From Eledone cirrhosa (taxonomy: Eukaryota), in the NCBI GenBank assembly GCA_964016885.1, contig OZ024764.1, forward strand, positions 3,534,001 through 3,598,000: a DNA stretch of 64,000 nt, read 5' to 3'. The notes under the pieces are model-generated. The model did not search any database. It was not told where the DNA came from and saw nothing but the letters and a program-made list of their open reading frames with translations. Below are positions 1,427-59,246 of this stretch, piece by piece. How positions within the stretch are numbered: position 1 is the stretch's first letter; every line of letters begins with the position of its first letter. The position numbers were made by a program, and so were the translations under genes.

Positions 1427-1454
1427 ACACACATACATGTATATATATATCTTT

Positions 1455-4400
1455 ATCTTAACAGAGAACTTCACCCATTTAAAAATGATAAAGGTCCCTC
1501 TGGACCTTTATCGTTCCTTAAAAGAACAATTTAGACGGGACGTGAGCCCCCCCTGTTTAAAACCGTTAAATCGCGTCCTCTTGAAAGATTTCCCCATAAC
1601 CGCCCCTCTCCCTGACACAACTCCAAATACCCCAACCCCACCACACACGGGTACCCCCACACCACCACAAAACATCCCTCCACCCAACACACCTGACGCC
1701 ATGGAAATTACACAACCCGGAGAGGTAAGTGCTTTTCTTTCTTCACTTTCAACACCAAAATAGATCAATTGAGAGTTGGCTGTTTGAACGCGCGTGGCCT
1801 GGGCTCAGCTTGGAAGCAAGCAAAGCTTCTAAGTGACCTTAGATCACAAAGTATAGATGTGATGGTTGTTTGCGAGAGTCGGATCAGCAGCGTGAGACAG
1901 CTGGCGCCCGCCTTCGATGACTTTGAGATGCACGCATCTCTCTTTCAACCCGGAGGAGGGGGGGGAGTTGCCGTACTGCTGGATAAACGTCTGGCTCTCG
2001 ACGTACAGATTGTTCACTCGGACCCGGGGGGGTCGATTACTGGTGCTGGACGTCGGGGGCGGTGAAGGCGGGGCTTTCAGACTGGTCGGTCTTTATGCTC
2101 TCTTCGGGGCGGAAAGAGCCGACTTCTTCCAGCGTCTGGAGACTTTTCTAGGAACGTCGCGTTCCCTGCTTTTAGTGGGGGACTGGAATGGAATCCTAGA
2201 TGCGCGTTGGGACTATGCAGGGGCATGTCCCGATAGAGGGGGGTGTAGCAACCTCAAGGGGTTACTCGATCGATTCGACCTGGTCGATAGATTTCGACTA
2301 GATTGTCCAACTGTGCCAACCTGGACCTGGGCAAACCACAGTGGACAATCTAGATCGTACCTAGATAGGTTTTTGGTTAGGAGTAAGGATAGGGACGTAT
2401 TTAGTTGTCCAGAATTGATCATGGTTGGCTATTCAGATCACAAATTAGTGACCTGCGTGGTCAACCTTGATAGAACACATAGACAGGGTCCCGGTTACTG
2501 GAAGATGAACTTGTCCTTGCCGGCAAAGAAAGATTACAGGAACCGGATTAGTAGCTTAGTTAAGATGCGGTTGACGGGAGCGATCGTCAACAGCAGGTGG
2601 TGGGTATCTCTAAAGAGAGAGATTAGAGTAAGTTCGATAGGTTACAGTAAGGAACTAGCGGCGAATAGAAATAGGAAGGAAAGGGAGTTAACAGATAAAC
2701 TAGAAGAGGCAATTAGGAGCGGAGACGTAGCCAGAGTGTTAGCGGCGAGAACGGCGTTGAGCCAGTTCTTTGACGCGAAGCACGAAGGCTGCGTTGTCCG
2801 AAGTAAAATACGTGCTTTAGGAAACGAGGGGACCAAAGCTGTTAGCTGGGCCCGCGTGACAGAAGCCAAGAGTGGGATTAAATCCACCATTCGGTCTTTG
2901 CGAGACCAGGATGGACGGGTGATCCTTGAACCTGAGCGGATGTGCGAGGCCTTTCAAAGGCACTTTGCTCGACTGTTCGGAGGGGGCGGGGGGCCGGACG
3001 GGGATGTGGACTTCGGTCCATACCTCGACGGTCTACCGCGTCTTTCGAGCGGCGAAGCGGAGTGCTGCGAAAGACCAATCACAGCCACTGAAATCGGGAA
3101 AGCGCTCGGCCAATGCAGCAGACGCAAATCTCCGGGTCTCGATGGTCTACCATACGAACTTTATTTAGCTATGCCGGTCTTGTTCTCCGAACTCCTCGAG
3201 GCTGTCTATTGCAACTGGCAACAGAACGGGAGAATTCCCTGTTCTGTGACCAAGGGCGTAGTCACGCTAGTGAGGAAGGACGAGAGCAAGGGGGACGACT
3301 TAAGTAACTTCAGGCCCATAACTCTGCTGAATGCAGAGTTACAGATTTTGGCCAAGGTGTTGGCGAAGAGGTTGGCGTTGTGGTGGGTGGTTTGGTGGGA
3401 GACGCGCAGACATGCACTATCCCGTCCAGGTCCATTCACGACAACCTCCACCTCATGCGATACATCATAGAGAGGGTTGGCAACGAACCCGGCTTTGGTG
3501 GGGCCCTGATCAACTTGGATCAATCTAAGGCGTTCGATAGGGTCGACCATGGTTACCTGGATGCGGTGCTAGCGGCGGCGGGCTTCGGACCCGTTTTCAG
3601 GGGCTGGATTTCTGCCATGCACAGTGGCAACATCTACTCTAGGGTTAAAGTAAACGGCTACCTCTCGGAGCCGTTTCAAATCACCCGGTCCATCAGGCAG
3701 GGGTGCCCCCTCTCCTCCCTTCTGTACGTATTGACTCTCGAGCCACTGCTGCGGAAGTTGGAGTTGCTGCGGGGCATACCCCTGGAACCGGGTTGCACAA
3801 AGCGGTCTCGGCCTATGCCGACGACGTAACAGTAATGGTGGCGGACGCCTCGGAAATCGGGGCGATCGCCACCCTACTGGAGGAATACGAAAGGCTGACG
3901 GGGGCTAAGCTGAACCAGGACAAGTCAGTCGGTTTGCAACTCGGAACGTGGAGGGGCAAACCGATGCCATTAGACGGTGTCGTCGGGCGGTGGACGGAGG
4001 GCCCGGTGAAGCTGCTCAGACCGGACCTCCAGGTGGAGAAGAATTGGGGCGAGGTGACGAGCAGGGTGTTTGCGCTGACCCAGAAGTGGGCCAAGTGCAA
4101 ACTATCACTGAAAGGTCGGGCGGAGGTGACGAACGCTTACATAGCGTCCGTCATCTACTACCGCCTGACCGTCGTGCCTTGCCCCAAGGAAAAGCTCACC
4201 ATCATGGAACGCATGCTCTTCCAGTTCCTCTGGAAGAAGCGGCCTCCCATGGTGAGGAGATCCATCTGCTGCCAGCACCCTTCGAAAGGAGGGCTGGGTA
4301 TGCCGTGGCTGTTGATGCGTAGGCACGCATTGAGGCTACGGCATCTACAGGTATTCCTCCACGGTCAGCCGGTGTGGGCCCCGTTTGTGAGGCGAGCCTT

Positions 4401-5463
4401 CCCACAGCTCGTCTCGCTCACCGAACTGCAATCCTGGGTGAAGCAAAGACCGAGAAAACTGGGCAACTGGCACACCGAGTGTGCCCAGGCGCTCACGGCT
4501 ATCTAGCAAGCGGACCCGACTATCAGTGGAGAATCCACCTCGACATTCTATAGAGGGTTGGTGGCTAGCAAGGGCGACGACACCCTTGTAGAGTCGCTAG
4601 GCATGGAGGAGGACGAACTGGCCAGCCTGTTCGGTAGAACTTTCGGCCCGGGACCCATGGACAACTTCCAGAGGTCCCTAGCCTGGCAGTGTTACCGGGG
4701 GGCTATGCCCGTTCGAGAAAAGCTCTACAGACACGGGCGCCCGGGCAGGGATCCCGCGAAAAAGATCTGTCCCAGATGCGTGCGCGACGAGGAAACCGTT
4801 GCGCATGCACTGGTACACTGCCCGGGCGTTGCCGATCTGTGGGGCTACGTCGAACGACTGCTGTCGCGTGTGGCGCCGATTCGATTAACCGCCGAGTCTG
4901 TGGTGAACATCAAGCCGCCTCCTCCCTTCAGAAATGAAGCAGAGGCGGTCTTTCTGTGCGTAATAGCCATGATGAAAGAGGTTGTGTGATGGACGCGCCT
5001 GAAAGGTCTGAGGTCGGGTGACTTTCTCTCCGGCCATCACCTGGTTTACTTCTTCCGATACCACTTCGGAAGAAGGATCAGGATGGAGAGAGAAGTGCTT
5101 GGCCCCAGACAGTTTTATGAAAGGTGGGTGAAAGAAGCGAGAATGGCCCGTGTAAATGGGCCTTCTCTCTACATTGTTCTGTAGGTGAAGAAGTGAAGAC
5201 GAAAGGGGGAGCGCCTCCTCTCTGGGCTTCCCCCGCGAAAAGAGTTGCACACTTTTCGGGGGTATGTGCAATCCCCAACACGCCCCCTCCCTTTTGAGGA
5301 CTTTTTATTGTTATATTATTATTGTTATTCCTTTTTCTTTACTCGATTTATGTAAACTCCCCCACTGTGTAAATGTCCCCTTCTTTTGTGCCCTCGTGGC
5401 AAATAAATAGAAATTTATCTATATTTATCTATCTATCTATCTATCTATCTAACTATATATCTA
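1455..5463 (+). mobile_element. Tx1/L1-clade LINE copy A (5'-truncated in ORF1, frameshifted ORF2)
   Basis: APE endonuclease (GCLNARGL, VGDWNG, SYLDRF, SDHK), RT (KSPGLDG, DQSKAFDRV, IRQGCPLS, AYADDV), C-terminal CPRC..HALVHC zinc finger, 3'UTR ending GTGGCAAATAAA plus (TATC)n. Confidence 0.95.
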
Positions 5464-8400
5464 CTGGTGGTTACTAACCGGTTTCCTCAATTTAGACGAG
5501 GACAACCTCATTTCAATAGGGAAGGCATCCGGCGACGCGTTCAGTGGAACGAGCATCAAAGTTCTGACCCAAATAAGGCCAGAACGCATCGCCCAAATCC
5601 CTGAGCGCGTCATGCTGGATGACTGTACCCACCTCAACATTATTGTGGAGGGTAGGCGTCCCTCCTGTTACCTCTGTGGCAATAGAGGTCACCTGAGGGC
5701 TGCCTGTCCCCAGCTCACACAGAAAAAAACACTGCTACCAACACCACCCCAACTACAACAACAAAAACAACCACAACAACAACAACAACAACAACAAAAA
5801 CCAACAACCCTACCACCACCACAACAACAACAACAACAAACACGTGAAAAAATAACACAGAATACTGTCCCACCCAATCCCTCCCCACCCAAAACAAATA
5901 CAAAAACACACACACCGCAAACACTACCAGAAAACATAACCCTCCCACCCAACAAGGAAGACGAACCCCTTTCGTCGCAAGACGAAAAAGATCCCTTCCA
6001 ACAAGTAAAAAGAAAGAAGAGGAGACGCACCACAGACACACGTTAACTTTAACCCCCCCCCCCCCAAGAGAACACAAACTACACACAAACCACCCCTCCC
6101 TGTCACACAACACTAACTGCTACACAAAAAAAGACCTTACAATATACATACATGAACACAGACAACAAAGAATTACGGAAAACAATTTCAGCAAACCCTT
6201 CGGTCCAATCTTTATAACTGCTGTGGGACTACCTCATTTAAAAATGATAAAAGTCCCAATGAACTTGTACAAAACACTGAAAATAAATTTCACGGAGGAC
6301 GTGCCCCCCCCCCCCCCCCCCTGCGCCAAACCAATCAACCGCGTCCTCCTAAAAAATTTCACCCCCCACCCCACCCAGACACCCACTCAACCACAAACAC
6401 CCCAACCCCACAACACACCGATGCCCCTTCACTTCCACAAACCACCACCCCACCCAACAACCCATCCCCAACCAGCATGGAAATTGAGCGGCCCGTTTCC
6501 CGGGACGCAGAGAGGTAAGTGCCTTTTCTCCTTACCACCAACATGGCTGTGCTAAGAGTAGGGTGTCTAAATGCGCGTGGCCTGGGCTCGTCTTAGAAGC
6601 AAGCAATGCTTCTAAATGACCTCAGGTCACGATCTATAAATGTGATGGTTATCTGCGAGGCCCGGATCAGCAGCATGCGACAGCTAGCCCCCACCTTTGA
6701 CGACTTTGAGATGCACGCATCTCTCTGTCAGCCCGGAGGTGGGGGTGGGGTTGTCGTTCTGCTGCAAAAACATATGGGCCTTGCAACACAGATAGTTCAC
6801 TTGGACCCAGGGGGTCGACTGGTGGTGCTGGACCTTGGCAGTGGTGAAGGTGGAGCCTTTAGGCTGGTAGCCGCATATGCTCCTTTTGGGACAGAGGGGC
6901 CCGACTTTTTCCAGCGTCTGGAGTCTTTTCTAGGGACGTCCCGTTCCCTGCTTTTAGTGGGGGATTGGAATGGTATCCTGGATGCACGTTGGGACTATGC
7001 AGGGGCATGTCCCGATAGAGAGGGGTGCAACAGCCTCATGGGGTTACTCGGCCGATTTGACCTGGCCGATAGATTTCGACTAGATTTTCCGACGGTGCCA
7101 ACCTGGTCTTGGTCAAATCGCAGCGGATCATCTAGGTCGTACCTAGATAGATTTTTAGTTAGAAATAAGGACAGGGACTTTTTAAGTTGTCCAGAAATGC
7201 TCATGGTTGGCTATTCAGACCACAAGTTGGTGACCTGCATGGTCAACCTTGATAGAACGCATAGACAGGGCCACGGTTACTGGAAGCTCAACTTGTCCTT
7301 GCCGGCAAGTAGAGCCTACAGGGATCGGATTAGTACGTTAGTTAAGGAACGATTGACTGGAGCGATCGTCAACAGCAGGTGGTGGGTATCTCTAAAGAGA
7401 GAGATTAGAGTAGTCTCGATAGAATTTAGTAAGGTTCTAGCTGCGGATAGGAATAGGAAGGAAAGGGAGCTAATAGATAGAGTAGAAGAGGCAATTAGAA
7501 GCGGCGACGTGGCCAGAGTGCTAGCGTCGAGAACGGCTTTGAGCCAGTTTTTCGACGCGAAGCACGAAGGCTGCGTTGTCCGAAGTAAAATACGTGCTCT
7601 AGGGAACGAGGGGACCAAAGCTGTTAGCTGGGCCCGCGTGACAGAGGCCAACAGTGGAACTAAATCCACTATCCGGTCTTTGCGAGACCTGGATGGACGG
7701 GCGATTCTTGAGCCTAAGCAGATGTGTGAGGCCTTTCAAAGGCACTTTGCCCGACTGTTCGGGAGGGGCGGGGAGCCGGTTGGGAACGTGGACTTCGGTC
7801 CATACCTCGACGGCCTGCCGCGTCTCTCGGACAGGGAGGCGAAGTCCTGCGAGGAGCCGATTTCGGCCGCTGAGATAGAGGACGTGCTGGGCCAATGCGG
7901 CAAACGCAAATCCCCGGGTCTCGATGGTCTTCCTTACGAATTATATCTAGCTATGCCGGACTTGTTCCCCGAGCTCCTCGAGGCGGTCTACTGCAACTGG
8001 CAACAGAACGGGAGAATTCCCTGTACTGTGACCAAGGGCGTAGTCACGCTAGTGAGGAAGGACGAGAACAAGGGGGACGAAATAAGTAACTTCAGGCCCA
8101 TAACTCTGCTAAATACAGAGTTACAGATTTTGGCCAAGGTGCTAGCAAAGAGGTTGGTGCTTGTCGTGGGCAACCTGGTGGGAGATGCACAGACATGCGC
8201 TATCCCGTCCAGGTCCATCCATGACAACCTCCACCTCATGCGATACATCATAGAGAGGGTTGGGAACGAACCCGGCTTTGGTGGGGCTCTGATCAACTTG
8301 GATCAATCTAAGGCGTTCGATAGGGTCGACCATGGTTACCTGGATGCATCCCTTTGGAACCGGGATTGCGGAAAGCGGTGTCGGCCTACGCCGATGACGT

Positions 8401-10060
8401 GACAGTAATGGTGTCGACGGCCTCCGAAATCGAGGCGGTCGGCACCTTACTGGAGGAGTACGAAAGATTCACAGGGGCTAAGCTGAACCGGGACAAGTCG
8501 ATCGGTTTGCAACTCGGCACGTGGAGGGGCAGACCGATGCCCTCCGATGGCGTCGTCGGACGCTGGACGGAGGGCCCGGTGAAGTTGCTCGGGGTCTGGT
8601 TCGGACCGGACCTCCAGGTGGAGAAAAACTGGGCGGAGGTTACGAACAGGGTGTTTGCACTGACCCAGAAGTGGGCCAGTTGCAAACTATCCCTGAAAGA
8701 TCGGGCGGAGGTGGCGAACATCTATATAGCGTCCGTCATCTACTACCGCCTGACCGTAGTGCCCTGCCCAAGGGAAACCCTCACCAAGATGGAGCGCACG
8801 CTCTTTCAATTCCTTTGGAAGAGGCGGGCTCCTATGGTGAGGAGATCCATCTGCTGTCAACACCCTTCGAAAGGAGGGCTGGGGATGCCGTGGCTAATGA
8901 TGCGTAAACACGCATTAAGGCTACGGCACCTCTACGTATTCCTCACCGGTCAACCGGTGTGGGCCTCGTTTGTGAGACGAACCTTTCCCAGACTCGTCTC
9001 ACTCACCGAGCTGCAATCCTGGGTCAAGCAAAGACCGAGAAAACTGGGCGCCTGGCACACTGAGTGTGCTCAGGCGCTCACCGCCCTCTGGCAGGCGGAT
9101 CCGGTTATCAGTGGAGACTCCACCGCAACATTCTATAGAGGGCTGGTACGCAGCAGGTGCGACGACACCCTCGGAGAAGCCCTAGACATGGAGGAGGACG
9201 AACTGGCCAGCCTGTTCGGTAGGACATTCAGCCCAGGACCTATGGACAACTTCCAGAAGTCCCTGGCCTGGCAGTGCTACCGAGGGGCTCTACCCGTTTG
9301 AGAAAAGCTCTACAGACACGGGCGCCCGGGTAGGGACCCCGCCAAAAAGATCTGTCCCAGATGCGTGTGCGACGAGGAAACCATTGCACACGCATTGGTA
9401 CACTGCTCGGGCGTAGCCGATCTGTGGGGCTATGTCGAACAACTGCTGTCAAGGGTGGGACCGATCCGGTTGACCACCGAGTCTATTGTAATAATCAAGC
9501 CGCCTCTTCCCTTCAAAGATGAAGGAGAGGCGGTGTTTCTGTGCGTAATAGCCATGGTGAAAGAGGTTGTATGGTGGACGCGTCTGAAAGGACTGAGGTC
9601 AGGCACCTTTCTCTCTGGCCAACAACTGGTCCGTTTCTTCCGATATCATTTCGGAAGAAGGATCAGGATGGAGAGAGAGGTGCTCCACCCCAGTCGTTTT
9701 TATGAAAGGTGGGTGAAAGTGGCGAGAATGGCCCGTGTGAATGGGCCTTCACTTTACATAAGCTTGTAGGTGGAAAAGAGGAAGGAACGAGGGAGCACCC
9801 CCTCTCTGTGCTCCTGAGGAAAAGGGTTGCACACTTTTTTCGGGGGTGTGTGCGACCCCCCAAGGTGCCTCCTCTCTATTGAGGATTTTGTTATAAATTT
9901 TATTTTTTGTTATATCTTATTTTATTTTTATATTTTGTTATTGCCTCCTCCTTATTGAGGACGCCTTTTTGTGTAAACTCCCCCCTTTGTACTTGTCCCA
10001 CTTTTGATGCCCCAGTGGCAAATAAAAGAAACATATCTATCTAACTATATATCTATCTAT
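5464..10060 (+). mobile_element. Tx1/L1-clade LINE copy B (partial ORF1 with CCHC knuckle; ORF2 with internal RT deletion)
   Basis: CYLCGNRGHLRAAC zinc knuckle; APE and RT; the RT segment containing QGCPLS is missing near 8348; flanked by the 22-bp duplication TATCTATCTAACTATATATCTA (5442-5463 and 10034-10055). Confidence 0.95.
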
Positions 10061-10256
10061 GCACATTTTTTTTCGGGGGTATGTGTTACCCATATAAACT
10101 GTCTCCCTCTATTGGGGAAAATCGACTAACTTTTAAATTCCATCTGTGATAACATTTTACACGTTTTTATTGTATGTAAACTTCCCCCTTTGTATTTGTC
10201 CCCTTCTTTTGTGCCCCTGTGGCTAATAAAGAAATATATATATCTATCTATCTATC
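10061..10256 (+). mobile_element. Tx1 copy C (3'UTR only)
   Basis: 3'UTR hairpin region, GTGGCTAATAAAGAAA, TATC tail. Confidence 0.9.
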
Positions 10257-10609
10257 TGATTCTTGAAGAAGGATAAGAATGGAGAGAGAGGTGCTTGGCC
10301 ACAGGCAGTTTTATGAAAGGTGGGTGATAGTGGCGAAAATGGCTCGTGTAAATGGGCCTTCTCTGTATACCATCCTGTAGGTAAAGAAGTAAAGGAGAGG
10401 GGAGCACCTTCTCCATGTGCTCCCCGGGCAAAGGATTGCACACTTTTTCGGGGGTGTGTGCAACCCCCATCACGTCCCCTCCCTTTTGAGGTTATTTTCG
10501 ATTATTTTCATTTTATAACCTTTTTACTCGATTGTATGTAAACTCCCCCTTTGTATTTGTCCCTTCTTTTTATGCCTTTATGGTAAATAAAGAAATATAT
10601 CTATCTATC
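10257..10609 (+). mobile_element. Tx1 copy D (ORF2 end plus 3'UTR)
   Basis: RRIRMEREVL..FYERWV coding tail, 3'UTR, TATC tail. Confidence 0.9.
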
Positions 10610-11013
10610 TGATTCTTTTTTTCAAATACCACTTTGGAAGAAGAATCAGGATGGAGAGAGAGGGGCTGTACCCCAGCAAGTTTTATGAAAGGTGGGTGAA
10701 AGTGGCGAGAATGGCCCGAGTGAATGGGCCTTCTCTTTATATCAGCCTGTAGGTTGAGGAAAAGGAGGAGGAGAGGAAGGGGGTACAAACTCTTCGTACT
10801 CCTGGAGATGAGGGTTGCACATTTTTTCGGGGGTATGTGTTACCCATATAAACTGTTTCCCCCTATTGGGGAAAATCGACTAACTTTTTAAATTGCATTT
10901 GTGATAACATTTCACACATTTTTATTGTATGTAAACTTCCCCCTTTGTATTTATCCCCTTCTTTTGTGCCCCTGTGGCTAATAAAGAAACATATCTATCT
11001 ATCTATCTATATC
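10610..11013 (+). mobile_element. Tx1 copy E (ORF2 end plus 3'UTR)
   Basis: Near-identical to the 3' end of copy G; TATC tail. Confidence 0.9.
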
Positions 11014-13719
11014 AACGTGAAACACGAAGGCTGCGTTGTCCAAAGCAAAATACGTGCTCTGGGAAATGAGGGGACCAAAGCTGTTAGCTGGGCCCGCGTG
11101 ACAGAAGCCAAAAGTGGGACTAGACCCACTATCCGGTCTTTGCGAGACCAGGATGGACGGGTGATCCTTGAACCTAAGCAGATGTGCGAGGCCTTTCAAA
11201 GGCACTTTGCCCGATTGTTCGGAAGGGGCGAGAGGCTGGATGGGGATGTGGACCTCGGTCCATACCTCGACGGCCTGTCGCGTCTTTCGGACGAGGAGGC
11301 GAAGTCTTGCAAGAGGCCGATCTCAGCTGCTGAAATAGGGGATGTGCTGAGCCAATGCGGCAGACGCAAATCTCCGGGCCTCAATGGTCTTCCATACGAA
11401 CTGTATTTAAGTATGCTGGACTTGTTCTTCGATCTCCTCGAAGCGGTCTACTGCAACTGGCAACAGAACGGGAGAATTCCCTGTTCTCTGACCAAGGGCG
11501 TAGTCTCGCTAGTGAGGAAGGACGAGAACAAGGGGGATGAAATAAGTAATTTTAGGCTCATAACACTGCTAGATGCAGAGTTAAAGATTTTGGCCAGGGT
11601 GTTAGCAAAGAGGTTGGCGCTTGTCGTGGGCAACCTGGTGGGAGATGCGCAAACATGCATCATCCCGTCCAGGTCTATTCATGACAACCTCCATCTCATG
11701 CGATACATCATAGAGAGGGTTGGGAACGAAATTTGGTTTCGTAGTGCTCTGATCAACTTGGATCAATCTAATGCGTTCGATAGGGTCGACCATGGTTACC
11801 TGGATGCGGTGCTAGTGGCGGCAGGCTTCGGACCCGTTTTCAGGGGCTGGATCACTGCTATGCACAGCAGCCGCATTTGCTCTAGGGTCAAGGTGAATGG
11901 CTACCTCTTGGAGCCGTTCGAAATCACGCGGTCCATCCGACAGGGATACCCTCTCTCCTCCCTTCTGTATGTATTGGCCCTAGAGCCACTGCTGCGGAAG
12001 TTGGAGTTGTCACATGGCATCCCTTTGGAACCGGGATTGCGGGAAGCTGTGTCGGCCTCCGCCGATGACGTGACAGTAATGGTGTCGACCACCTCGGAAA
12101 TCGGAGTGATCGACACCTTACTGGAGGAATACGAAACATTTACAGGGGCTAAGCTGAACCGGGACAAGTCAGTCGATTTGCAACTCGGCAAGTGGAGGGG
12201 CAAACCGATGGCCACAGACGCCGTCGTCGGGTGTTGGACGGAGGGCCCGGTGAAGTTGCTCGGGGTCTGGTTCGGGCCAGACCTCCAGGTGGAGAAGAAC
12301 TGGGGTGAGGTATCGAACAGGGTGTTTGCGCTGACACGGAAGTGGGCTGAGCGCAAACTATCCCTGAAAGGTCGGGCGGAGGTGGCGAACGCTTATATAG
12401 CGTCCGTCATCTACTACCGCCTGACCGTAGTGCCCTGCCCAAGGGAAACGCTCACCAAAATAGAGCGCGCACTCTTCCAATTCCTTTGGAAGAAGCAGGC
12501 TCCTTTGGTGAGGAGATCCATCTGCTGTCAACACCCTTCGAAAGGAGGGCTGGGGATGCCATGGCTGCTGGTGCGTAAATACGCATTAAGGCTACGGCAC
12601 CTCCAGGTATTCCTCACCGGTCAACCGGTGTGGGCCCCGTTTGTGAGGTGAGCCTTTCCGAGACTCGTCTCGCTCCTGAGCTGCAGTCCTGGGTCAAGCA
12701 CAGACCAAGAAAACTGGGCGCCTGGGCACACCGGGTGTGCCCAGGCGCTCACGGCTCTCTGGCGGGCAGACCCGACTATCGGTGGAGACACCACCTCGAC
12801 ATTCTATAGAGGGCTGGTGGTTAGTAGGTGCGACGATGCCCTCGGACAAGCCCTAGGCATGTTGGAAGACGAAGTGGCCAGCCTATTCGGGAGGACATTT
12901 GGCCCGGGACAACTTCCAGAAGTCCCTGGCCTGGCAGTGCTACCGAGGGGTGCTGCCTGTTCGAGAAAAGCTCTACAGACACGGGCGCCCGGGTAGGGTC
13001 CCCTCGAAAAAAATTTGTCCCAGATGCGTGCGCGATGGGGAAACCGTTGCGCACGCATTGGTACACTGCTCGGGCGTTGCCGATCTGTGGGACTATGTCG
13101 AACGACTGCTGTCAAGGGTGGGACCAATCCGGTTGACCACCGAGTCTATTGTAACGATCAAGCCGCCTCCCCTCTTCAAAAACGAAGGAGAGGCGGTGTT
13201 TCTGTGCGTAATAGCCATGGTGAAAGAGGTTGTATGGTGGACGCGTCTGAAAGGACTGAGGTCAGACACCTTTCTCTCTGGCCAACAACTGGTCCGTTTC
13301 TTCCGATATCATTTCGGAAGAAGGATCAGGATGGAGAGAGAGGTGCTGCACCCCAGCAAGTTTTATGAAAGGTGGGTGAAAGTAGCGAGAATGGCCCGTG
13401 TGAATGGGCCTTCTCTCTTTATCAGCCTGTAGGTGGAAAGGTGGAAGTGCAAAGGAGCACTCCCTCTCTGTGCTCCTAAGGAAAAGGGTTGCACACTTTT
13501 TCGGGGGTGTGTGTAACTCCCAAAACGCCTCCTCCCTATTGAGGACTGTATTGTTAATTTTATATTTGTTATTAGTTTTTTACTCGTTCCTTTATGTAAA
13601 CTCCCCCCTTGTATTTGTCCCCTTCTTTTGTGCCCTCGTGGCAAATAAATAGAAACTTATCTATCTATCTAACTATCTATATTTATCTATCTATCTATTT
13701 GTCTATATTTATCTATCTA
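11014..13719 (+). mobile_element. Tx1 copy F (RT to 3' end, degenerate)
   Basis: ORF 10945-12651 RT (SADD in place of YADD), zinc finger, 3'UTR, long TATC tail. Confidence 0.95.
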
Positions 13720-14443
13720 CCAGTTCAAGACAAGCTCTACAGACACGGCCGCCCGAGCAGGGACCCTTCAAAAAAGATCTGTCTGAGATGCGTGCGAGAT
13801 GAAGAAACCATCGCGCACGCATTGGTACACTGCCCGGGTGTTACCGACCTGTGGGGCTATGTAGAATGACTATTGTCGCAGGTGGGACCAATCCAGTTGA
13901 CCACCGAGTCCATTGTCATGATCAAACCGCCACCCTCCTTCAAAAACGAAGGAGAGGCGGTTTTCCTTTGTGTGATAGCTATGGCAAAAGAGGTTGTATG
14001 GTGGACGAGGTTAAAAGGGCTTAGGTCAGACACCTTTCTCTTCGGCCAACAACTGATTCTTTTTTTCAAATACCACTTTGGAAGAAGAATCAGGATGGAG
14101 AGAGAGGGGCTGTACCCCAGCAAGTTTTATGAAAGGTGGGTGAAAGTGGCGAGAATGGCCCGAGTGAATGGGCCTTCTCTCTATATAAGCCTGTAGGATG
14201 AGGAAAAAGAATAGAGGAAAGGGATACAAACTCTTCGTACTCCTGGAGATGAGGGTTGCACATTTTTTCGGGGTTATGTGTTACCCATATGTAATGTCTC
14301 CCCCTATTGGGGAAAATCAATTAATATTTAAATTGCATTTGTGATAGTATTTTACACATTTTTATTGTATGTAAACTTCCCCCTTTATATTTGACCCTTT
14401 CTTTTGTGCCCCTGTGGCTAATAAAGAAACATATCTATCTATC
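13720..14443 (+). mobile_element. Tx1 copy G (zinc finger to 3' end)
   Basis: KKICLRC..HALVHC, 3'UTR, tail; 5' junction shares TCTACC microhomology with the preceding tail. Confidence 0.9.
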
Positions 14444-15130
14444 ATTGAAACCGTCTTGCACGCAATTGTACACTGGCCGGGCATAACCGACCTGTGGAAC
14501 TACGCGGAACAGCTGCTGTCACGTATGGGACAAATTCAGTTGACTGCTGTGTTCATAGTAAGGATCAAACCGCCAACTTCTTTCAAAAACGAAAGAGAGG
14601 CGGTTTTCCTCTGTACAGTGGCTATGGTGAAAAAGGTTATATGGTGGACGAGATTGAGAGGACTGAGGACAGATGCCTTTCTCTCCGGACAACAATTGAT
14701 TCCCTTCTTTAAGTATCACTTTAGAAGGAGAATCAGAGTGGAGAGAGAGGCAATGCACCCCAGTAAATTTACTGAAAGGTGGGTGAATGTGGCAAAAATG
14801 GCCCGAGTGATTGGGCCTTCTCTGTATATAAACCTGTAGGTTGAAGAAGAGAGCAAAAAGAAGAAAGGAACACTTGCACAACACGCTCCTGAAGTTGAGG
14901 GTTGTTCTATCTACGGGGTATTAAACAACCCATTTGTGGCACCTCCCCCCTATTGGGGATTTCAATTGTTAAATTTGTTTATTTCAATATTTTTACACGA
15001 CTGTATGTAAAATCCCCGGCCTATGTCCTTGAATTGTCCCCTTTTCTTGTGCACCCTTGTGGCAAATAAAGAAATATATCTATTTATCTATATCTCTATA
15101 TCTATCTGTCTATAGCTATCTATCTATCTA
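14444..15130 (+). mobile_element. Tx1 copy H (most diverged, 3' fragment)
   Basis: ETVLHAIVHW..PSLYINL*, diverged 3'UTR, GTGGCAAATAAAGAAA plus TATC tail. Confidence 0.9.
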
Positions 15131-15149
15131 TATATATATATATATATAT

Positions 15150-16790
15150 ATCATCATCATCAACGTTTAACGTCCGTGTTCCACGCTTGCATGGGTTTGG
15201 ACGGGGGTTTTCCCACTTGAGGCAAGAGTGGTTGTCTTGCTTGCATAGGACTGTCTGGCAGGTTTTCTACGGCTGGATGCCCTTCCTAACACCAACCACG
15301 TTTACAGTGTGGACTGGGAGGTTTTTACCGTGTTGCCTACACGGCCACATTACAGCGTGGACTGTCTGGCGGGTTTTCTACAGCTGGATGCCCTTCCTAA
15401 CACCAACCACATTTACAGTGTGGGGCTGGGAGGTTTTTACTGTGTTGCCTACACGGCCACATTACAGCGTGGACTGTCTGGCGGGTTTTCTACAGTTGGA
15501 TGCCCTTCCTAACACCAACCACATTTACAGTGTGGGGCTGGGAGGTTTTTACCGTGTTGCCTACACGGCCACATTACAGCGTGGACTGTCTGGCGGGTTT
15601 TCTACAGCTGGATGCCCTTCCTAACACCAACCACATTTACAGTGTGGACTGGGAGGTTTTTACCGTGTTGCCTACACGGCCACATTACAGCGTGGACTGT
15701 CTGGCGGGTTTTCTACAGTTGGATGCCCTTCCTAACACCAACCACATTTACAGTGTGGGGCTGGGAGGTTTTTACCGTGTTGCCTACACGGCCACATTAC
15801 AGCGTGGACTGTCTGGCGGGTTTTCTACAGCTGGATGCCCCTTCCTAACACCAACCACATTTACAGTGTGGGGCTGGGAGGTTTTTACCGTGTTGCCTAC
15901 ACGGCCACATTACAGCGTGGACTGTCTGGCGGGTTTTCTACAGTTGGATGCCCTTCCTAACACCAACCACATTTACAGTGTGGGGCTGGGAGGTTTTTAC
16001 CGTGTTGCCTACACGGCCACATTACAGCGTGGACTGTCTGGCGGGTTTTCTACAGCTGGATGCCCCTTCCTAACACCAACCACATTTACAGTGTGGGGCT
16101 GGGAGGTTTTTTACTGTGTTACCTACACGGCCACATTACAGCGTGGACTGTCTGGCAGGTTTTCTACAGCTGGATGCCCTTCCTAACACCAACCACATTT
16201 ACAGTGTGGGGCTGGGAGGTTTTTTACTGTTTTACCTACACGGCCACATTACAGCGTGGACTGTCTGGCAGGTTTTCTACAGCTGGATGCCCTTCCTAAC
16301 ACCAACCACATTTACAGTGTGGGGCTGGGAGGTTTTTTACTGTGTTACCTACACGGCCACATTACAGCGTGGACTGTCTGGCAGGTTTTCTACAGCTGGA
16401 TGCCCTTCCTAACACCAACCACATTTACAGTGTTGGGGCTGGGAGGTTTTTACCGTGTTACCTACACGGCCACATTACAGCGTGGACTGTCTGGCGGGTT
16501 TTCTACAGCTGGATGCCCTTCCTAACACCAACCACATTTACAGTGTGGGACTGGGAGGTTTTTACCGTGTTGCCTACACGGCCACATTACAGCGTGGACT
16601 GTCTGGCAGGTTTTCTATGGCTGGATGCCCTTCCTAACACCAACCACGTTTACAGTGTGGAACTGGGAGGTTTTTACTGTGTTGCCTACACGGCCACATT
16701 ACAGCGTGGACTGTGTGTTTTTTTGTCATGACACCTACACAACCTCATTTGTTTCGGCCTGGATGTTGTGGCACCAACATAACTTTACAT
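15150..16790 (-). mobile_element. RTE-tailed SINE with about 13 tandem 112-bp internal units
   Basis: (CAT)n tail at 15150, then the unit CTGTCTGGCGGGTTTTCTACAGCTGGATGCCCTTCCTAACACC..CAGCGTGGA repeated 15250-16710. Confidence 0.85.
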
Positions 16791-17002: not shown

Positions 17003-17513
17003 TGTTGGTGCGACAACATCCAGGCCGAAACAAATGAGATCGTGTAGGTGTCACGACAAAAAAACACACAGTCCACGCTGTAATGTGGCCGTGTAGGCAA
17101 CACGGTAAAAACCTCCCAGTCCCACACTGTAAATGTGGTTGGTGTTAGGAAGGGCATCCAGCTGTAGAAAACCTGCCAGACAGTCCACGCTGTAATGTGG
17201 CCGTGTAGGCAACACGGTAAAAACCTCCCAGACCCACACTGTAAATGTGGTTGGTGTTAGGAAGGGCATCCAACTGTAGAAAACCCGCCAGACAGTCCAC
17301 GCTGTAATGTGGCCGTGTAGGCAACACGGTAAAAACCTCCCAGACCCACACTGTAAATGTGGTTGGTGTTAGGAAGGGCATCCAGCCGTAGAAAACCTGC
17401 CAGACAGTCCTATGCGAGCAAGACAACCACTCTTGCCTCAAGTGGGACTACCCCCGTCCAAACCCATGCAAGCGTGGAACACGGACGTTAAACGTTGATG
17501 ATGATGATGATGA
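17003..17513 (+). mobile_element. Same SINE family, 3 internal units
   Basis: Reverse complement of the 15150-16790 element; (GAT)n tail. Confidence 0.85.
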
Positions 17514-17682: not shown

Positions 17683-18526
17683 ATACAGAGGTAGAGAGAG
17701 ATGGAGAGGAGATGGGGAGAGGGGTGAGAGGAAGAGATAGAGAGGAGAGGGGGAATAGGGAGAGAGAGAGGGGGTAGATAGAGAGGGTAGAGAGGGAGAG
17801 AGAGAGATAAAGAGAGAGGGGGAGAGAGGGAGAGTGGTGTGTTAGCCATATCATCTACCATGTCCCCCTATTCCCTTACCATGTTTTTCCCCAGGGGTGG
17901 GGCAACAATAAGTCTATTAGGTACTTTACATTTGATGCAATGCCTTGCCTACCCCATCTACCCTTTACCAGTATTTATATAAGTGTTTTTTTTATGCCAA
18001 ACTGACTGCTTCTATATACACACACACACACATATATATATATACACACAAACACACACGCGCGCGGCTAAAAGTCTGATTGTTTGCTTGCTTCTCTGTA
18101 ATGTAATACAGCCAAAAGGGTACATAATGGGAAAATACTTTGAAAGGAAGTTGTCCCTGAAATGGGAATACAAATGGAATAAAACAAGTTTTGAGTAAAT
18201 TGGAGCTCGGGTGACCGAGATATGGGGTTTACTGAGTACCTTCATAAATATAGAGAGAAGGTTAGAAAGGAAGAGATAGTGGTTGTGAGACTGTAGATTG
18301 AAAGAGAGACATAGAGAGGAAAGAGAGAGAGGGAGAGAGAGAGAGAGAGAGAAGGAGAATGGAAGAGAGACAGCTGGTGGTGGTGTTGTGTGTGTGTATA
18401 ACACTTTTTGTGTATAACACTTGTTGTGTGTGTGTGTGTAACATTTTTTCACGCTTAGAGTTGCTGAAGCATGGAACAAACTACCTGCGTCAGTTGTTAG
18501 CTGTCGAAACACTGCATCCTTTAAAC

Positions 18527-21497: not shown

Positions 21498-22273
21498 TAT
21501 ATATATAAGATGTTGTAGTTTGCTTGAAGGAATATAAAGTTAACCCTTTAACATTTACATTACTCTATATATACTATTGTATTTTCACAGTAAAGGCTTT
21601 ACCTCACATAATATCTCACATAACATTTACATTACTCTATATATACTATTGTATTTTCACAGTAAAGGCTTTACCTCACATAACATTTACATTACTCTAT
21701 ATATACTATTGTATTGTCACAGTAAAGGCTTTACCTCACATAATATCTCACATAACATTTACATTACTCTATATATACTATTGTATTTTCACAGTAAAGG
21801 CTTTACCTCACATAATATCTCACATAGCATTTACATTACTCTATATATACTATTGTATTGTCACAGTAAAGGCTTTACCTCACATAATATCTCACATAGC
21901 ATTTACATTACTCTATATATACTATTGTATTGTCACAGTAAAGGCTTTACCTCACATAATATCTCACATAACATTTACATTACTCTATATATACTATTGT
22001 ATTGTCACAGTAAAGGCTTTACCTCACATAATATCTCACATAACATTTACATTACTCTATATATACTATTGTATTTTCACAGTAAAGGCTTTACCTCACA
22101 TAATATCTCACATAACATTTACATTACTCTATATATACTATTATATTTTCACAGTAAAGGCTTTACCTCACATAATATCTCACATAACATTTACATTACT
22201 CTATATATACTATTATATTTTCACAGTAAAGGCTTTACCTCACATAATATCTCACATAACATTTACATTACTC

Positions 22274-24361
22274 TGTAGTGGTTGTCTCCCTTGTTTTGAT
22301 TGGGATCTAGACGGGAGGTGGAACCCTTTCTGCGACTTCCGGTCAGAGCCCTATAAAACTAACAACTTTAAGCTTCCTTTCTCTCTTTGCCTTTTCGGCA
22401 CCAGGACAAGAGCCTCTCATTTGGCTCTGCCATTAATTTGGCCAACAGGCGCCTGGCCTTAGCCAGGCGCCCTCTGCCAGCCGCGTTTGCCTGGCAATCA
22501 AAACGGTAACTACTAACTTTGTTTCATTCTAACATCTATCTTTGACATGTCAAGTATACTATCTACCGTTAATTAAATATTATACACACAAACCATGTCT
22601 CGTTTTGTTACTACCCATTTCACCTAGTATCCTCGCTATATTGGTAACCTTAACGTGATACGAACACGCAGCCGTTCATCGCTATAAGTGGTCACCCCCA
22701 AAAAAGAAAAAAATAGCACATCTGGTTTCGTGTGAGTAACATTACGAATACACAGCAAATTTAGCGACAAACTATGAAAATACTCAAGGACACGCACACA
22801 CGTACATGTGGAATTCGCACAGACAGACTTTTTCTCTCACGCATCAATTAACTGTCGCATTTCACCAATATATATATATATGTTTCTCGTTTCTTACAAC
22901 GAACACTTTCAAAACAAAAAAAAAAAAAAAAACATTTCACGATATATATATATGTTTCTCGTTTCTTACAACGAACTCTTTCAAAACAAAAAAAAAAAAA
23001 AGAAATTTGATATTCTTTAAAAAACATTTCAACAGGAACATTTATTTTCGATGAACCATTGCCTTTTTGTTCATCGTTTTGTTCATCGTTCAAGTTTTTT
23101 GTTTTTTTTTCCCAAAGTTCACACCAATAATTATGCTGATTGAAGCCTTTCTTTTTCATCATTGTCACTTTCAAAATTGCACTATCATTTTCTCGCGCGT
23201 TAGAAATATTTTTTTTCAACCTTGTATTGGCATGTGTAGGCAGCATAAATTCTCGATTCACTGAGATGTCTCTACTCACAGACAGCCGCACGCCAGAGAT
23301 AGCATTTCTCCCCCAAGGATTCTTCAGCCTTAAGCTATATTCTTCTATTTGCCGGTTTATAAATTTACAATGTAAATTTACCGTTGATAACCGCGCATTT
23401 ATTAAGAATGCTTATTTCTCTGGTCGCTGGCCTCTTGACCCTTCCAGGTCAACGCATTCTCAACATCGACCATCAACTTCGGCTGCTATTTCTAGCACTT
23501 TGCGCAACTCATTTTTTCTAAAAAAAAATTTTTTTACTGTGAATTTAAACACCGAATACGCTCACTCAGCGAGGCAACAGCAATATAACAGCAACAGCAA
23601 TACATCAACACAGCTTCACCAAAGCCAGAGAATTTATTTTTGCAGCACTCTTCCTGTGAGAAAATCCATTCGGAGGTTGGAAATTTCACGATATACCACA
23701 GAACAGAAACCACCTGCATTCATTCTCTGGAACACACTTTCTTTCTTGCTGTCATGTGATTGCACACCTGTGAACTATATTTTGAACTTTGAGCTCTTCT
23801 ATTACTTTTACTTTATTACATTGTATCTTTGGGTGATGGATAGATGGATGTCCAGTCGTTCTCTGGCCAAGAGCGGTTGGCTACCTTGATATCTATCATT
23901 GATTTTTCCAAACATTCTTTTGTCGTAATTTTCATGCCTGTTACAACATTCTCGCCAACTTGCTACATATTTTCATTTCGATTTTTATACACTAAAATTC
24001 TGGCGGGAGGTTATGTAGCGGTTGTCTCCCTTGTTTTGATTGGGATCTAGACGGGAGGTGGAACCCTTTCTGCGACTTCCGGTCAGAGCCCTATAAAACT
24101 AACAACTTTAAGCTTCCTTTCTCTCTTTGCCTTTTCGGCACCAGGACGAGAGCCTCTCATTTGGCTCTGCCATTAATTTGGCCAACAGGCGCCCTCTGCC
24201 AGCCGCGTTTGCCTGGCAATCAAAACGGTAACTACTAACTTTGTTTCATTCTAACATCTATCTTTGACATGTCAAGTATACTATCTACCGTTAATTAAAT
24301 ATTATACACACAAACCATGTCTCGTTTTGTTACATTCATACAACCCAGTAATCTCGCTATA
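22274..24361 (+). mobile_element. Non-autonomous Gypsy-type LTR element, copy 1
   Basis: LTRs 22274-22640 and 24014-24361 (TGTAGYG..CGCTATA); PBS TGGTAACCTTAACGTGAT resembling the tRNA-Trp PBS TGGTGACCCCGACGTGAT; purine-rich GGCGGGAGG before the 3' LTR; 4-bp TSD ACTC; no RT or integrase core recognisable. Confidence 0.85.
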
Positions 24362-25013
24362 ACTCTATATATACTATTGTATTGTCACAGTAAAGGCTTT
24401 ACCTCACATAATATCTCACATAACATTTACATTACTCTATATATACTATTGTATTGTCACAGTAAAGGCTTTACCTCACATAATATCTCACATAACATTT
24501 ACATTACTCTATATATACTATTGTATTGTCACAGTAAAGGCTTTACCTCACATAATATCTCACATAACATTTACATTACTCTATATATACTATTGTATTG
24601 TCACAGTAAAGGCTTTACCTCACATAATATCTCACATAACATTTACATTACTCTATATATACTATTGTATTGTCACAGTAAAGGCTTCACCTCACATAAT
24701 ATCTCACATAGCATTTACATTACTCTATATATACTATTGTATTTTCACAGTAAAGGCTTTACCTCACATAATATCTCACATAACATTTACATTACTCTAT
24801 ATATACTATTGTATTTTCACAGTAAAGGCTTTACCTCACATAATATCTCACATAACATTTACATTACTCTATATATACTATTATATTTTCACAGTAAAGG
24901 CTTTACCTCACATAATATCTCACATAACATTTACATTACTCTATATATACTATTATATTTTCACAGTAAAGGCTTAACCTCACATAATATCTCACATAAC
25001 ATTTACATTACTC

Positions 25014-27101
25014 TGTAGTGGTTGTCTCCCTTGTTTTGATTGGGATCTAGACGGGAGGTGGAACCCTTTCTGCGACTTCCGGTCAGAGCCCTATAAAACT
25101 AACAACTTTAAGCTTCCTTTCTCTCTTTGCCTTTTCGGCACCAGGACAAGAGCCTCTCATTTGGCTCTGCCATTAGTTTGGCCAACAGGCGCCTGGCCTT
25201 AGCCAGGCGCCCTCTGCCAGCCGCGTTTGCCTGGCAATCAAAACGGTAACTACTAACTTTGTTTCATTCTAACATCTATCTTTGACATGTCAAGTATACT
25301 ATCTACCGTTAATTAAATATTATACACACAAACCATGTCTCGTTTTGTTACTACCCATTTCACCTAGTATCCTCGCTATATTGGTAACCTTAACGTGATA
25401 CGAACACGCAGCCGTTCATCGCTATAAGTGGTCACCCCCAAAAAAGAAAAAAATAGCACATCTGGTTTCGTGTGAGTAACATTACGAATACACAGCAAAT
25501 TTAGCGACAAACTATGAAAATACTCAAGGACACGCACACACGTACATGTGGAATTCGCACAGACAGACTTTTTCTCTCACGCATCAATTAACTGTCGCAT
25601 TTCACCAATATATATATATATGTTTCTCGTTTCTTACAATGAACACTTTCAAAACAAAAAAAAAAAAAAAAACATTTCACGATATATATATATGTTTCTC
25701 GTTTCTTACAACGAACTCTTTCAAAACAAAAAAAAAAAAAAGAAATTTGATATTCTTTAAAAAACATTTCAACAGGAACATTTATTTTCGATGAACCATT
25801 GCCTTTTTGTTCATCGTTTTGTTCATCGTTCAAGTTTTTTGTTTTTTTTTCCCAAAGTTCACACCAATAATTATGCTGATTGAAGCCTTTCTTTTTCATC
25901 ATTGTCACTTTCAAAATTGCACTATCATTTTCACGCGCGTTAGAAATATTTTTTTTCAACCTTGTATTGGCATGTGTAGGCAGCATAAATTCTCGATTCA
26001 CTGAGATGTCTCTACTCACAGACAGCCGCACGCCAGAGATAGCATTTCTCCCCCAAGGATTCTTCAGCCTTAAGCTATATTCTTCTATTTGCCGGTTTAT
26101 AAATTTACAATGTAAATTTACCGTTGATAACCGCGCATTTATTAAGAATGCTTATTTCTCTGGTCGCTGGCCTCTTGACCCTTCCAGGTCAACGCATTCT
26201 CAACATCGACCATCAACTTCGGCTGCTATTTCTAGCACTTTGCGCAACTCATTTTTTCTAAAAAAAAATTTTTTTACTGTGAATTTAAACACCGAATACG
26301 CTCACTCAGCGAGGCAACAGCAATATAACAGCAACAGCAATACATCAACACAGCTTCACCAAAGCCAGAGAATTTATTTTTGCAGCACTCTTCCTGTGAG
26401 AAAATCCATTCGGAGGTTGGAAATTTCACGATATACCACAGAACAGAAACCACCTGCATTCATTCTCTGGAACACACTTTCTTTCTTGCTGTCATGTGAT
26501 TGCACACCTGTGAACTATATTTTGAACTTTGAGCTCTTCTATTACTTTTACTTTATTACATTGTATCTTTGGGTGATGGATAGATGGATGTCCAGTCGTT
26601 CTCTGGCCAAGAGCGGTTGGCTACCTTGATATCTATCATTGATTTTTCCAAACATTCTTTTGTCGTAATTTTCATGCCTGTTACAACATTCTCGCCAACT
26701 TGCTACATATTTTCATTTCGATTTTTATACACTAAAATTCTGGCGGGAGGTTATGTAGCGGCTGTCTCCCTTGTTTTGATTGGGATCTAGACGGGAGGTG
26801 GAACCCTTTCTGCGACTTCCGGTCAGAGCCCTATAAAACTAACAACTTTAAGCTTCCTTTCTCTCTTTGCCTTTTCGGCACCAGGACGAGAGCCTCTCAT
26901 TTGGCTCTGCCATTAATTTGGCCAACAGGCGCCCTCTGCCAGCCGCGTTTGCCTGGCAATCAAAACGGTAACTACTAACTTTGTTTCATTCTAACATCTA
27001 TCTTTGACATGTCAAGTATACTATCTACCGTTAATTAAATATTATACACACAAACCATGTCTCGTTTTGTTACATTCATACAACCCAGTAATCTCGCTAT
27101 A
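25014..27101 (+). mobile_element. Non-autonomous Gypsy-type LTR element, copy 2
   Basis: Near-identical to copy 1 at offset 2740, same ACTC TSD and same LTR asymmetries. Confidence 0.85.
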
Positions 27102-29213
27102 ACTCTATATATACTATTGTATTGTCACAGTAAAGGCTTTACCTCACATAATATCTCACATAACATTTACATTACTCTATATATACTATTGTATTGTCAC
27201 AGTAAAGGCTTTACCTCACATAATATCTCACATAACATTTACATTACTCTATATATACTATTGTATTGTCACAGTAAAGGCTTTACCTCACATAACATTT
27301 ACATTACTCTATATATACTATTGTATTTTCACAGTAAAGGCTTTACCTCACATAATATCTCACATAACATTTACATTACTCTATATATACTATTGTATTT
27401 TCACAGTAAAGGCTTTACCTCACATAATATCTCACATAACATTTACATTACTCTATATATACTATTGTATTTTCACAGTAAAGGCTTTACCTCACATAAT
27501 ATCTCACATAACATTTACATTACTCTATATATACTATTGTATTGTCACAGTAAAGGCTTTACCTCACATAATATCTCACATAACATTTACATTACTCTAT
27601 ATATACTATTGTATTGTCACAGTAAAGGCTTTACCTCACATAATATCTCACATAACATTTACATTACTCTATATATACTATTGTATTTTCACAGTAAAGG
27701 CTTTACCTCACATAATATCTCACATAACATTTACATTACTCTATATATACTATTGTATTTTCACAGTAAAGGCTTTACCTCACATAATACCTCACATAAC
27801 ATTTACATTACTCTATATATACTATTGTATTTTCACAGTAAAGGCTTTACCTCACATAATATCTCACATAACATTTACATTACTCTATATATACTATTAT
27901 ATTTTCACAGTAAAGGCTTTACCTCACATAATATCTCACATAACATTTACATTACTCTATATATACTATTGTATTGTCACAGTAAAGGCTTTACCTCACA
28001 TAATATCTCACATAACATTTACATTACTCTATATATACTATTGTATTGTCACAGTAAAGGCTTTACCTCACATAATATCTCACATAACATTTACATTACT
28101 CTATATATACTATTGTATTGTCACAGTAAAGGCTTTACCTCACATAATATCTCACATAACATTTACATTACTCTATATATACTATTGTATTTTCACAGTA
28201 AAGGCTTTACCTCACATAATATCTCACATAACATTTACATTACTCTATATATACTATTGTATTGTCACAGTAAAGGCTTTACCTCACATAATATCTCACA
28301 TAACATTTACATTACTCTATATATACCATTGTATTTTCACAGTAAAGGCTTTACCTCACATAATATCTCACATAACATTTACATTACTCTATATATACTA
28401 TTGTATTGTCACAGTAAAGGCTTTACCTCACATAATATCTCACATAACATTTACATTACTCTATATATACTATTGTATTTTCACACTAAAGGCTTTACCT
28501 CACATAATATCTCACATAATATTTACATTACTCTATATATACTATTGTATTTCCAGAGTAAAGGCTTTACCTCACATAATATCTCGCATGACATATACAT
28601 TACTCTATATATACTATTGTATTTTCACAGTAAAGGCTTTACCTCACATAACATTTACATTACTCTATATATACTATTGTATTGTCACAGTAAAGGCTTT
28701 ACCTCACATAATATCTCGCATGACATATACATTACTCTATATATACTATTGTATTGTCACAGTAAAGGCTTTACCTCACATAATATCTCGCATGACATAT
28801 ACATTACTCTATATATACTATTGTATTGTCACAGTAAAGGCTTTACCTCACATAATATCTCGCATGACATATACATTACTCTATATATACTATTGTATTG
28901 TCACAGTAAAGGCTTTACCTCACATAATATCTCGCATAACATTTACATTACTCTATATATACTATTGTATTTTCACAGTAAAGGCTTTACCTCACAACTA
29001 ATATCTTAATCAAAATACGGCGTAAGCACTACTTACCAGCTATTTTTCAAGATCTCCGCTGTTTATAAACAAAGCTAAGCTTTTTATCTTATATAATGGA
29101 GTTTTAAATAAATTTAGAAAGGTCTTCAAAATGTTTTTAATTAAACATACGGTATATTGCCAAATATACTGTACATACATTCATGTATACATCGCTATTT
29201 CAGAGCATCAATA

Positions 29214-37698: not shown

Positions 37699-37743
<45 letters not shown>

Positions 37744-59225: not shown

Positions 59226-59246
59226 GTCCTTCCTCTTTTAACCAAC

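Follow-up and report, generated by a model that had tools for sequence, protein, structure and literature searches.

Eight LINE copies head to tail in a degenerate (TATC)n repeat of Eledone cirrhosa: probable separate insertions into a re-used target

How do eight copies of one long interspersed nuclear element (LINE) family come to lie head to tail with hardly anything but TATC-type repeats between them? The question is raised by a stretch of 64,000 nucleotides from the cephalopod Eledone cirrhosa (GCA_964016885.1, contig OZ024764.1, positions 3,534,001 to 3,598,000 of the forward strand), which was analysed whole and is called the window here; all coordinates below refer to it. The train of copies, A to H, occupies ~1449-15076, and all are on the + strand. 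An earlier, sequence-only reading had taken it for a self-targeting array in which each element landed on the (TATC)n tail of another. We consider it probable that the copies are separate target-primed insertions into one degenerate (TATC)n microsatellite of the host, each duplicating a reusable target of ~15-22 bp. The train is built as follows (ORF, open reading frame; TSD, duplication of the target site; UTR, untranslated region; RT, reverse transcriptase):

1449-5415, + strand: copy A, its truncation falling in the end of ORF1; frameshifting and stops in ORF2; start uncertain by ~3 nt.
5416-5463, + strand: spacer A-B, of degenerate (TATC)n, containing the 5' copy of B's 22-bp TSD (5442-5463).
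5464-10033, + strand: copy B, truncated within ORF1 with the CCHC knuckle retained; ORF2 with stops.
10034-10060, + strand: spacer B-C; B's 3' TSD (10034-10055) overlaps the 5' copy of C's 15-bp TSD (10046-10060).
10061-10236, + strand: copy C, 3'UTR only, of the C/E/G type.
10237-10264, + strand: spacer C-D, with C's 3' TSD (10237-10251), E's displaced 5' TSD (10241-10257) and D's 5' TSD (10245-10264).
10265-10597, + strand: copy D, end of ORF2 and 3'UTR; a later insertion than E, 13 nt upstream of the head of E.
10598-10610, + strand: spacer D-E; D's 3' TSD spans 10598-10617, reaching into E.
10611-10991, + strand: copy E, end of ORF2 and 3'UTR; 2-nt microhomology at 10609-10610.
10992-11012, + strand: spacer E-F; E's 3' TSD copy (10992-11008) is pure TATC and not diagnostic.
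11013-13657, + strand: copy F, truncated upstream of the RT; RT domain readable; start approximate.
13658-13719, + strand: spacer F-G, 62 bp of degenerate (TATC)n with variant units in common with spacer A-B.
13720-14431, + strand: copy G, of the C/E/G type.
14432-14442, + strand: spacer G-H, 11 bp.
14443-15076, + strand: copy H, the most divergent, 71-79% identical to the others in ORF2; 5' end backed by a read joint at 14443.
15077-15152, + strand: right flank, where degenerate (TATC)n passes gradually into (TA)n.

The copies share their 3' ends: each closes with AATAAA(0-2 nt)GAAA (GAAA at 5413, 10031, 10234, 10595, 10989, 13655, 14429 and 15074), followed by a pyrimidine, then A or T, and then the TATC-type repeat. 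From A to H they measure ~3965, 4568, 174, 331, 379, 2643, 710 and 632 bp, and the eight 5' breakpoints map to eight different places on a full-length ninth copy, I, found elsewhere in the window. These common ends and distinct breakpoints confirm the view of the sequence-only reading that the train holds eight same-strand, differently 5'-truncated copies. Its statement that only TATC-type repeats separate them also holds, save for seven extra bases before D, across spacers of 11-62 bp. Runs of at least three TATC units occur eight times on the + strand of the window, every time within the train, and never on its - strand. None of the copies that retain enough coding sequence for a verdict is intact: stops, frameshifts or a deletion (in B, ~210 bp of the RT at 8347) are present in A, B, F, G and I. 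Only a short stretch at the 3' end is left of C, D, E and H.

The duplications flanking the copies carry most of the argument. We computed the longest exact match for every pair of 5' junction and 3' flank; between the two sides of the same copy it is 22 bp for B, 20 for D, 15 for C, 14 for E and F, 10 for G, 8 for H, 5 for A and 4 for I. The duplication around B, already noticed in the sequence-only reading, matches without a difference at 5442-5463 and 10034-10055 and has no third occurrence in the window; those of C, D and E, and the ninth copy I, are additions to it. When the copies are removed in turn, a single 33-bp target (5442-5463, 10056-10060 and 10252-10257) suffices to account for the sequence on either side of B, C, E and D, with overlapping TSDs of 22, 15, 17 and 20 bp, respectively, that share one 4-nt phase and start 2 nt after GAAA. 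D's TSD is made up of the inner 13 bp of E's 5' TSD and the first seven bases of E (GATTCTT), which form the last seven bases of 10245-10264; the chance of these seven non-repeat bases is ~4^-7 by our own arithmetic. The head of E is identical to positions 14053-14084 of copy G. Since D's TSD ends in the head of E and not in the sequence expected upstream of D, E came first and D went into E's 5' TSD: this is the clearest sign of target re-use.

The copies also differ in a manner that speaks for separate origins. Third codon positions hold 48-62% of the ORF2 differences in all 15 pairs of A, B, F, G, H and I (P <=3.1e-3), the copies covered by this test, C and D being too short for it. This excess indicates that the divergence arose in active source lineages, which for the train copies are 71-99% alike, and not after local duplication; together with the distinct breakpoints it supports independent insertion over tandem duplication, as had been proposed. 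The subfamilies themselves emerge with unequal clarity. The 3'UTRs of C, E and G are firmly grouped (87-93% alike, bootstrap 99-100), and E and G differ at only two of 141 coding bases (98.6% alike), so that these three come from one subfamily though their breakpoints differ. The pairing of A with D stands moderately (3'UTRs 74% alike; bootstrap 82 on the last 380 nt). B and F, put together before, are the closest long pair in ORF2 (89.5%); their 3'UTRs are 77% alike, as are those of A and F, and no B+F clade appears in any of three trees, which led us to drop them as a clean subfamily pair. The last 40 nt of A and F (5374-5413 and 13616-13655) are identical, these copies being ~85% alike elsewhere, possibly through gene conversion or a mosaic source element.

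How might such insertions proceed? The APE endonuclease of the element would nick the GATA-reading strand just before a TA-TC unit, within a core like NN-TCTA-T(A/C)TA; the freed 3'-OH would prime reverse transcription at the element's GAAA+2 end; a second nick would fall 15-22 bp downstream, and microhomologies of 1-4 nt would join the truncated 5' ends. A usable target would thereby be left on both sides of each new copy. Because AATAAA sits just before the element's end, transcripts may extend by a few bases into the adjoining TATC, and this stretch could anneal to the nicked strand. No copy bears a poly(A), and there is room for at most 0-3 TATC units of tail. The array would be of host origin, some 190 bp long when empty. 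Two claims of the sequence-only reading thus survive in part. The duplication around B was indeed taken from the repeat after copy A, which does not appear to be A's own tail; and the target is indeed renewed and used again, as the first seven bases of E in D's TSD attest, with renewal coming from the TSD and not from a tail carried by the element.

Copy I informs the question of what the endonuclease recognizes:

57247-62918, + strand: copy I, full length, with 5'UTR, ORF1 with a CCHC knuckle from 57457, and ORF2 at 59247-62684.

Its ORF2 lies in one frame with three stops. It ends in GAAA and two further bases, with neither a TATC tail nor poly(A), inside a 72-bp satellite, of which 7 bp of a unit are missing at the junction (a target deletion). 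All eight 3' junctions of the train begin TAT[C/A]TAT two bases after GAAA, and in a weight matrix made from them the site of copy I ranks first of 144 positions in the 72-bp satellite unit. That a tail-less insertion lies at the top-ranked site favours a core resembling NN-TCTA-T(A/C)TA and speaks against a tail borne by the element. By target, eight insertions fell in the ~190-bp array, one in satellite arrays and none inside (TA)n, which totals 1310 bp in 62 runs of (TA)5 or more; only the 5' end of A adjoins such a run. An array of 4.4 kb built of a 20-bp unit containing TCTATCT (29355-33743) is free of LINE copies, hence a single TCTAT is insufficient as target. The long (AG)n tracts at 17693-17834 and 18303-18352 are likewise free of copies: the target here is TATC-type, not (TC)n or (TTC)n. 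It is likely that the endonuclease of this family prefers TCTA-phased repeats and that the target is renewed by duplication. The TATC/TCTA-phased target of the sequence-only reading is to this extent borne out, by eight of eight 3' junctions in one phase at this one locus. Under the published rule a family is microsatellite-specific if its target is present in >20% of flanks (Kojima 2015); in the window eight of nine copies are flanked by the TATC repeat, all eight from one array. The 72-bp satellite itself occupies two regions, 21549-29006 and 55525-63530, the former being part of a tandem duplication with a period of ~2.7 kb and 98.6% identity.

Public sequencing runs offer a view beyond the window. 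Seven of the 12 listed runs contain part of the stretch, and sequences from four were mapped to 9000-15300. The family is highly repeated: 47,873 contigs of run X4, 99,204 contigs of run X1 and 197,538 reads of run X10, a reduced-representation library with the same species label as X4, were mapped. In X10, 2,124 molecules stop within C-type 3'UTRs, at an AATT site (10136); 1,472 and 349 reads (~55 and 33 start places) pass the end of C and loop back by 20-21 nt within the TA/TATC spacer, and depth over D falls to 1-5. As the reads loop back while depth over D falls, most of the C-type 3' ends sampled in this run seem to enter a longer TA/TATC repeat. The loose read ends listed come largely from a repeat at 15254-15299 and from internal positions, with no flanks at element 3' ends among them. 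Contigs broke off at the spacers or passed them over, and run X2, with its small share of words, contributes nothing to the evidence here. A segment just right of the train, 15119-15300, has very high depth in the public runs.

Several observations weigh against insertion into a pre-existing array. Under a Markov null trained on the spacers, a match of at least 22 bp arises in 1.9-2.5% of trials (~1% with a variant unit) and one of at least 15 bp, the length seen at C, in 8-10% (3-4% with a variant unit). The duplication of B is therefore good, that of C modest and that of E pure repeat, and only those of B and D clearly beat chance; the matches at A (5 bp), F (14), G (10), H (8) and I (4) are not diagnostic of a duplication. 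Matches between junctions of different copies reach 19 bp (5' of B with 3' of F), because variant units recur in the array, and 18 bp (5' of D with 3' of E), the latter expected from the nesting. The absence of TATC on the 5' side of copy A is poorly explained by an array that was there before. The family also inserts outside (TATC)n, as copy I shows, and pure (TA)n scores 10.2 in the weight matrix against 5.5 for the site of copy I; the core motif is hence only roughly defined. Finally, the X10 evidence comes from a reduced-representation library and one subfamily and cannot count loci, and a joint of the empty site is absent among the 15 joints listed (there are 1,668 others).

The 5' side of copy A is the natural starting point for an alternative in which A, landing in (TA)n, brought a long degenerate TATC stretch with it by read-through at the 3' end of its donor, and the other seven copies then inserted there by the TSD mechanism. 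The 5' end of A adjoins a (TA)n run, with no TATC and no recognizable TSD, and (TA)n borders the whole train on both sides; moreover, A and F share not only their last 40 nt but also the two longest spacers (48 and 62 bp) with variant strings of 19 and 24 bp in common. These shared variants, however, are arranged differently behind A and behind F, one of them occurring twice in the spacer of F, as would be produced by internal duplication of a host microsatellite. A target deletion of the kind seen at copy I would account for the missing TSD of A just as a founder that brought the array would. We hold this founder scenario to be improbable. A wider conjecture builds on it: the lineage would keep one TCTA-phased specificity across subfamilies up to 29% apart, seed its own landing pads by founder read-through of TATC into (TA)n and multiply them by TSD. 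Trains would then be the usual form of the lineage in the genome, sinks of its own making that lengthen introns by kilobases and preserve the sequence in which subfamilies were active. This we offer as speculation that is doubtful at present.

Insertion into a host microsatellite, the preferred reading, must further be weighed against the model of the sequence-only reading, whereby each copy bears a (TATC)n tail derived from its RNA or from RT slippage, which later copies target. TATC does follow all eight train copies, with its longer runs confined to the train, and if 2-3 leading TATC units are counted as tail, the TSDs at B, D and E shrink accordingly, two readings that sequence alone cannot separate; microsatellite tails are known from RTE elements, one in octopus included (PMC9115989). 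Yet the unit directly after C is a variant one also present in C's 5' flank, which leaves C no tail; in A and H the second unit is already a variant, hence at most one unit can be tail; copy I has no TATC at all; and the spacers are rich in variant units, as in an old host repeat. A self-encoded tail should appear as repeat between element end and TSD in every copy: it is absent in C and I, at most one unit in A and H, and at most 2-3 in B and D. With the TSDs of B, C, D and E beginning 2 nt after GAAA, we reject own tails as the main source of the spacers and regard the model as unlikely.

LINE RTs are established to switch templates (mentioned in PMC4494074), and some adjacent copies could have been made in one event, with the RT moving from RNA to RNA. 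The short, non-diagnostic duplications of F, G and H and the 11-bp spacer G-H would suit such jumping; B, C, D and E, each with its own duplication, that of D containing the head of E, do not, and we think it very unlikely. Tandem or segmental duplication, which we reject, or an assembly artefact is hardly credible, since, for all the closeness of C, E and G (E and G above all), a recent tandem duplication elsewhere in the window (21631-27742) and a train that no contig or read among the mapped public-run sequences spans, no two breakpoints agree, the copy order never repeats, the other pairs are 71-90% alike with a third-position excess, and individual TSDs are present.

What kind of element is this? 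Its ORF2 comprises an N-terminal APE endonuclease, an RT and a C-terminal zinc-binding region, and a separate ORF1 with one CCHC knuckle is present in B and I. A Pfam scan of the window's ORFs found Exo_endo_phos and RVT_1 above cut-off and zf-RVT at or just under it. The knuckle, C-x2-C-x4-H-x4-C, can be read directly in B and I, a feature not unique to Tx1, and zf-CCHC matches it there with E 0.0014 and 0.0051, under the curated cut-off; the same scan gave no Transposase_22 match in ORF1. An ORF1 with a CCHC knuckle and without Transposase_22 is consistent with Tx1 (PMC5203782). A profile of copy F and 19 relatives matched human L1 ORF2p at E ~1e-114 versus ~1e-34 for R2, making L1 ORF2p the best relative of solved structure; a phmmer search of the PDB with the endonuclease of copy B returned chance matches only. 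Among proteins with a name, those of Argonauta hians come closest (64% and 71%), pointing to a likely octopod host; a large group of unnamed proteins lies at 42-47%, and no match in the homologue searches or in an atlas search was named Tx1. The APE-RT-zinc ORF2, the separate ORF1 and the variable 5' truncation with fixed 3' ends are features of the L1 group. The family fits an L1/Tx1-type LINE, the Tx1 label being a putative one suggested by anatomy and target preference.

Some further observations concern the element. The last 70 nt of the nine copies fold weakly (-4.4 kcal/mol) with no net covariation, and we claim no 3' hairpin. A sequence like a 5' splice site, AG/GTAAGT or AG/GTAGGT, overlaps the ORF1 stop in A, B and I (~1724, 6514 and 59220, + strand), followed by a pyrimidine-rich gap of 25-40 nt before ORF2; the end of ORF1 is otherwise poorly conserved. 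Metagenome contigs searched for related loci gave 155 pattern matches and 0 relatives, and five loci matching a 21-nt 3'-end pattern were taken as chance, as none had further similarity to the element. A gene model of the lancelet Branchiostoma belcheri, P0001 (2,785 aa), comprises ORF2 twice plus a further C-terminal fragment, a hint that a related LINE is arrayed head to tail there.

The train has a gene for a neighbour:

33868-38398, - strand: large exon of a two-pore-domain K+ channel; the left bound is the exon end, the right bound the end of the open frame.

The open frame (33860-38398, - strand) ends in pore loop 1 (TTIG), with a splice donor GT at 33867-33866. After TTIG, 19 channel homologues (picked from 150 matches) continue with YG[H/N], and nothing in the window matches their downstream portions at E up to 1; the four homologues scanned each carry two Ion_trans_2 stretches. 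The train is thus predicted to be antisense to the channel gene, in agreement with the sequence-only reading, and would lie inside an intron of >33 kb if the gene continues left of the window; any 'safe haven' benefit, as supposed in that reading, is conjectural. The exon has a low-complexity N-terminal frame of ~1,370 aa before the channel part, and several relatives are similarly long. Elsewhere in the window there is a dispersed repeat resembling a short interspersed nuclear element and ending in (GAT)n (483-711, 15248-16714, 17068-17410, 43153-43383, 43925-44243, 50080-51217 and 52854-54673), in which the degree of tandem amplification of an inner unit of 112 or 49 bp varies greatly. A decayed LINE 3' end (46254-47550, + strand), which from its motif we take to be RTE-like, has an 80-bp internal segment amplified ten times.

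If our reading is right, (TATC)n joins the few microsatellites on record as targets of APE-type LINEs, and a target site would be given, for the first time among the papers found, for a cephalopod L1/Tx1 family. From the nested duplications a nick position can be predicted, useful for understanding how APE endonucleases gain specificity, and such arrays would date subfamilies against each other. The L1-Tx1 class is expanded in coleoids (PMC8967140), and 13 recently active L1-Tx1 families are reported from Octopus vulgaris (PMC13282606); the available parts of the cephalopod reports deal with abundance and mention neither target sites nor arrays (PMC13282606, PMC8967140, PMC9115989). The principle that targeted LINEs form TSD-separated arrays is already known; a LINE targeting TATC was not found among the literature matches listed, a search in which Repbase was not included and which does not establish absence from print.

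The closest precedents in kind of target are Kibi and Koshi (Tx1 clade, teleost fish) and crocodilian Tx1 families, directed at (TC)n, (TTC)n, (TTCC)n and (TTTC)n (PMC4494074, PMC3812793). Like them, the present family is an APE-type LINE of the L1/Tx1 group in microsatellites; unlike Kibi and Koshi, its target is TATC/TCTA and its host a cephalopod. The LINE targets listed in one review are ACAY, AC, TC, TTC and TAA (PMC3812793), and Togen and some Hero families add further ones (PMC4640811). RTE elements also place a LINE 3' end next to a microsatellite (PMC9115989), but there the repeat is part of the 3'UTR, whereas here it is a duplicated target beside an element with two ORFs and L1 ORF2p as best structure match. 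In crocodilian Mariner-N4, tandem copies of SINEU-3 sandwich a TSD and are read as sequential insertions by Tx1 machinery (PMC4494074); these resemble the train in having tandem copies around a TSD and differ in that the inserting element is a non-autonomous SINE and the target a DNA transposon. The closest parallel in arrangement is offered by the R1 arrays of Drosophila, whose copies are separated by TSDs since newcomers insert into the TSD that adjoins the 5' end of a copy already present, just as D lies in the TSD beside the 5' end of E; R1 likewise has precise 3' junctions and 5' microhomologies, and some of its full-length copies yield target deletions (PMC2718515). R1, of the R1 clade, uses a unique 14-bp site in the 28S rDNA, with an average of two to three copies in the richest species (PMC2718515); the train, in contrast, has a repeat as target, TSDs of 15-22 bp and eight copies from several source lineages.

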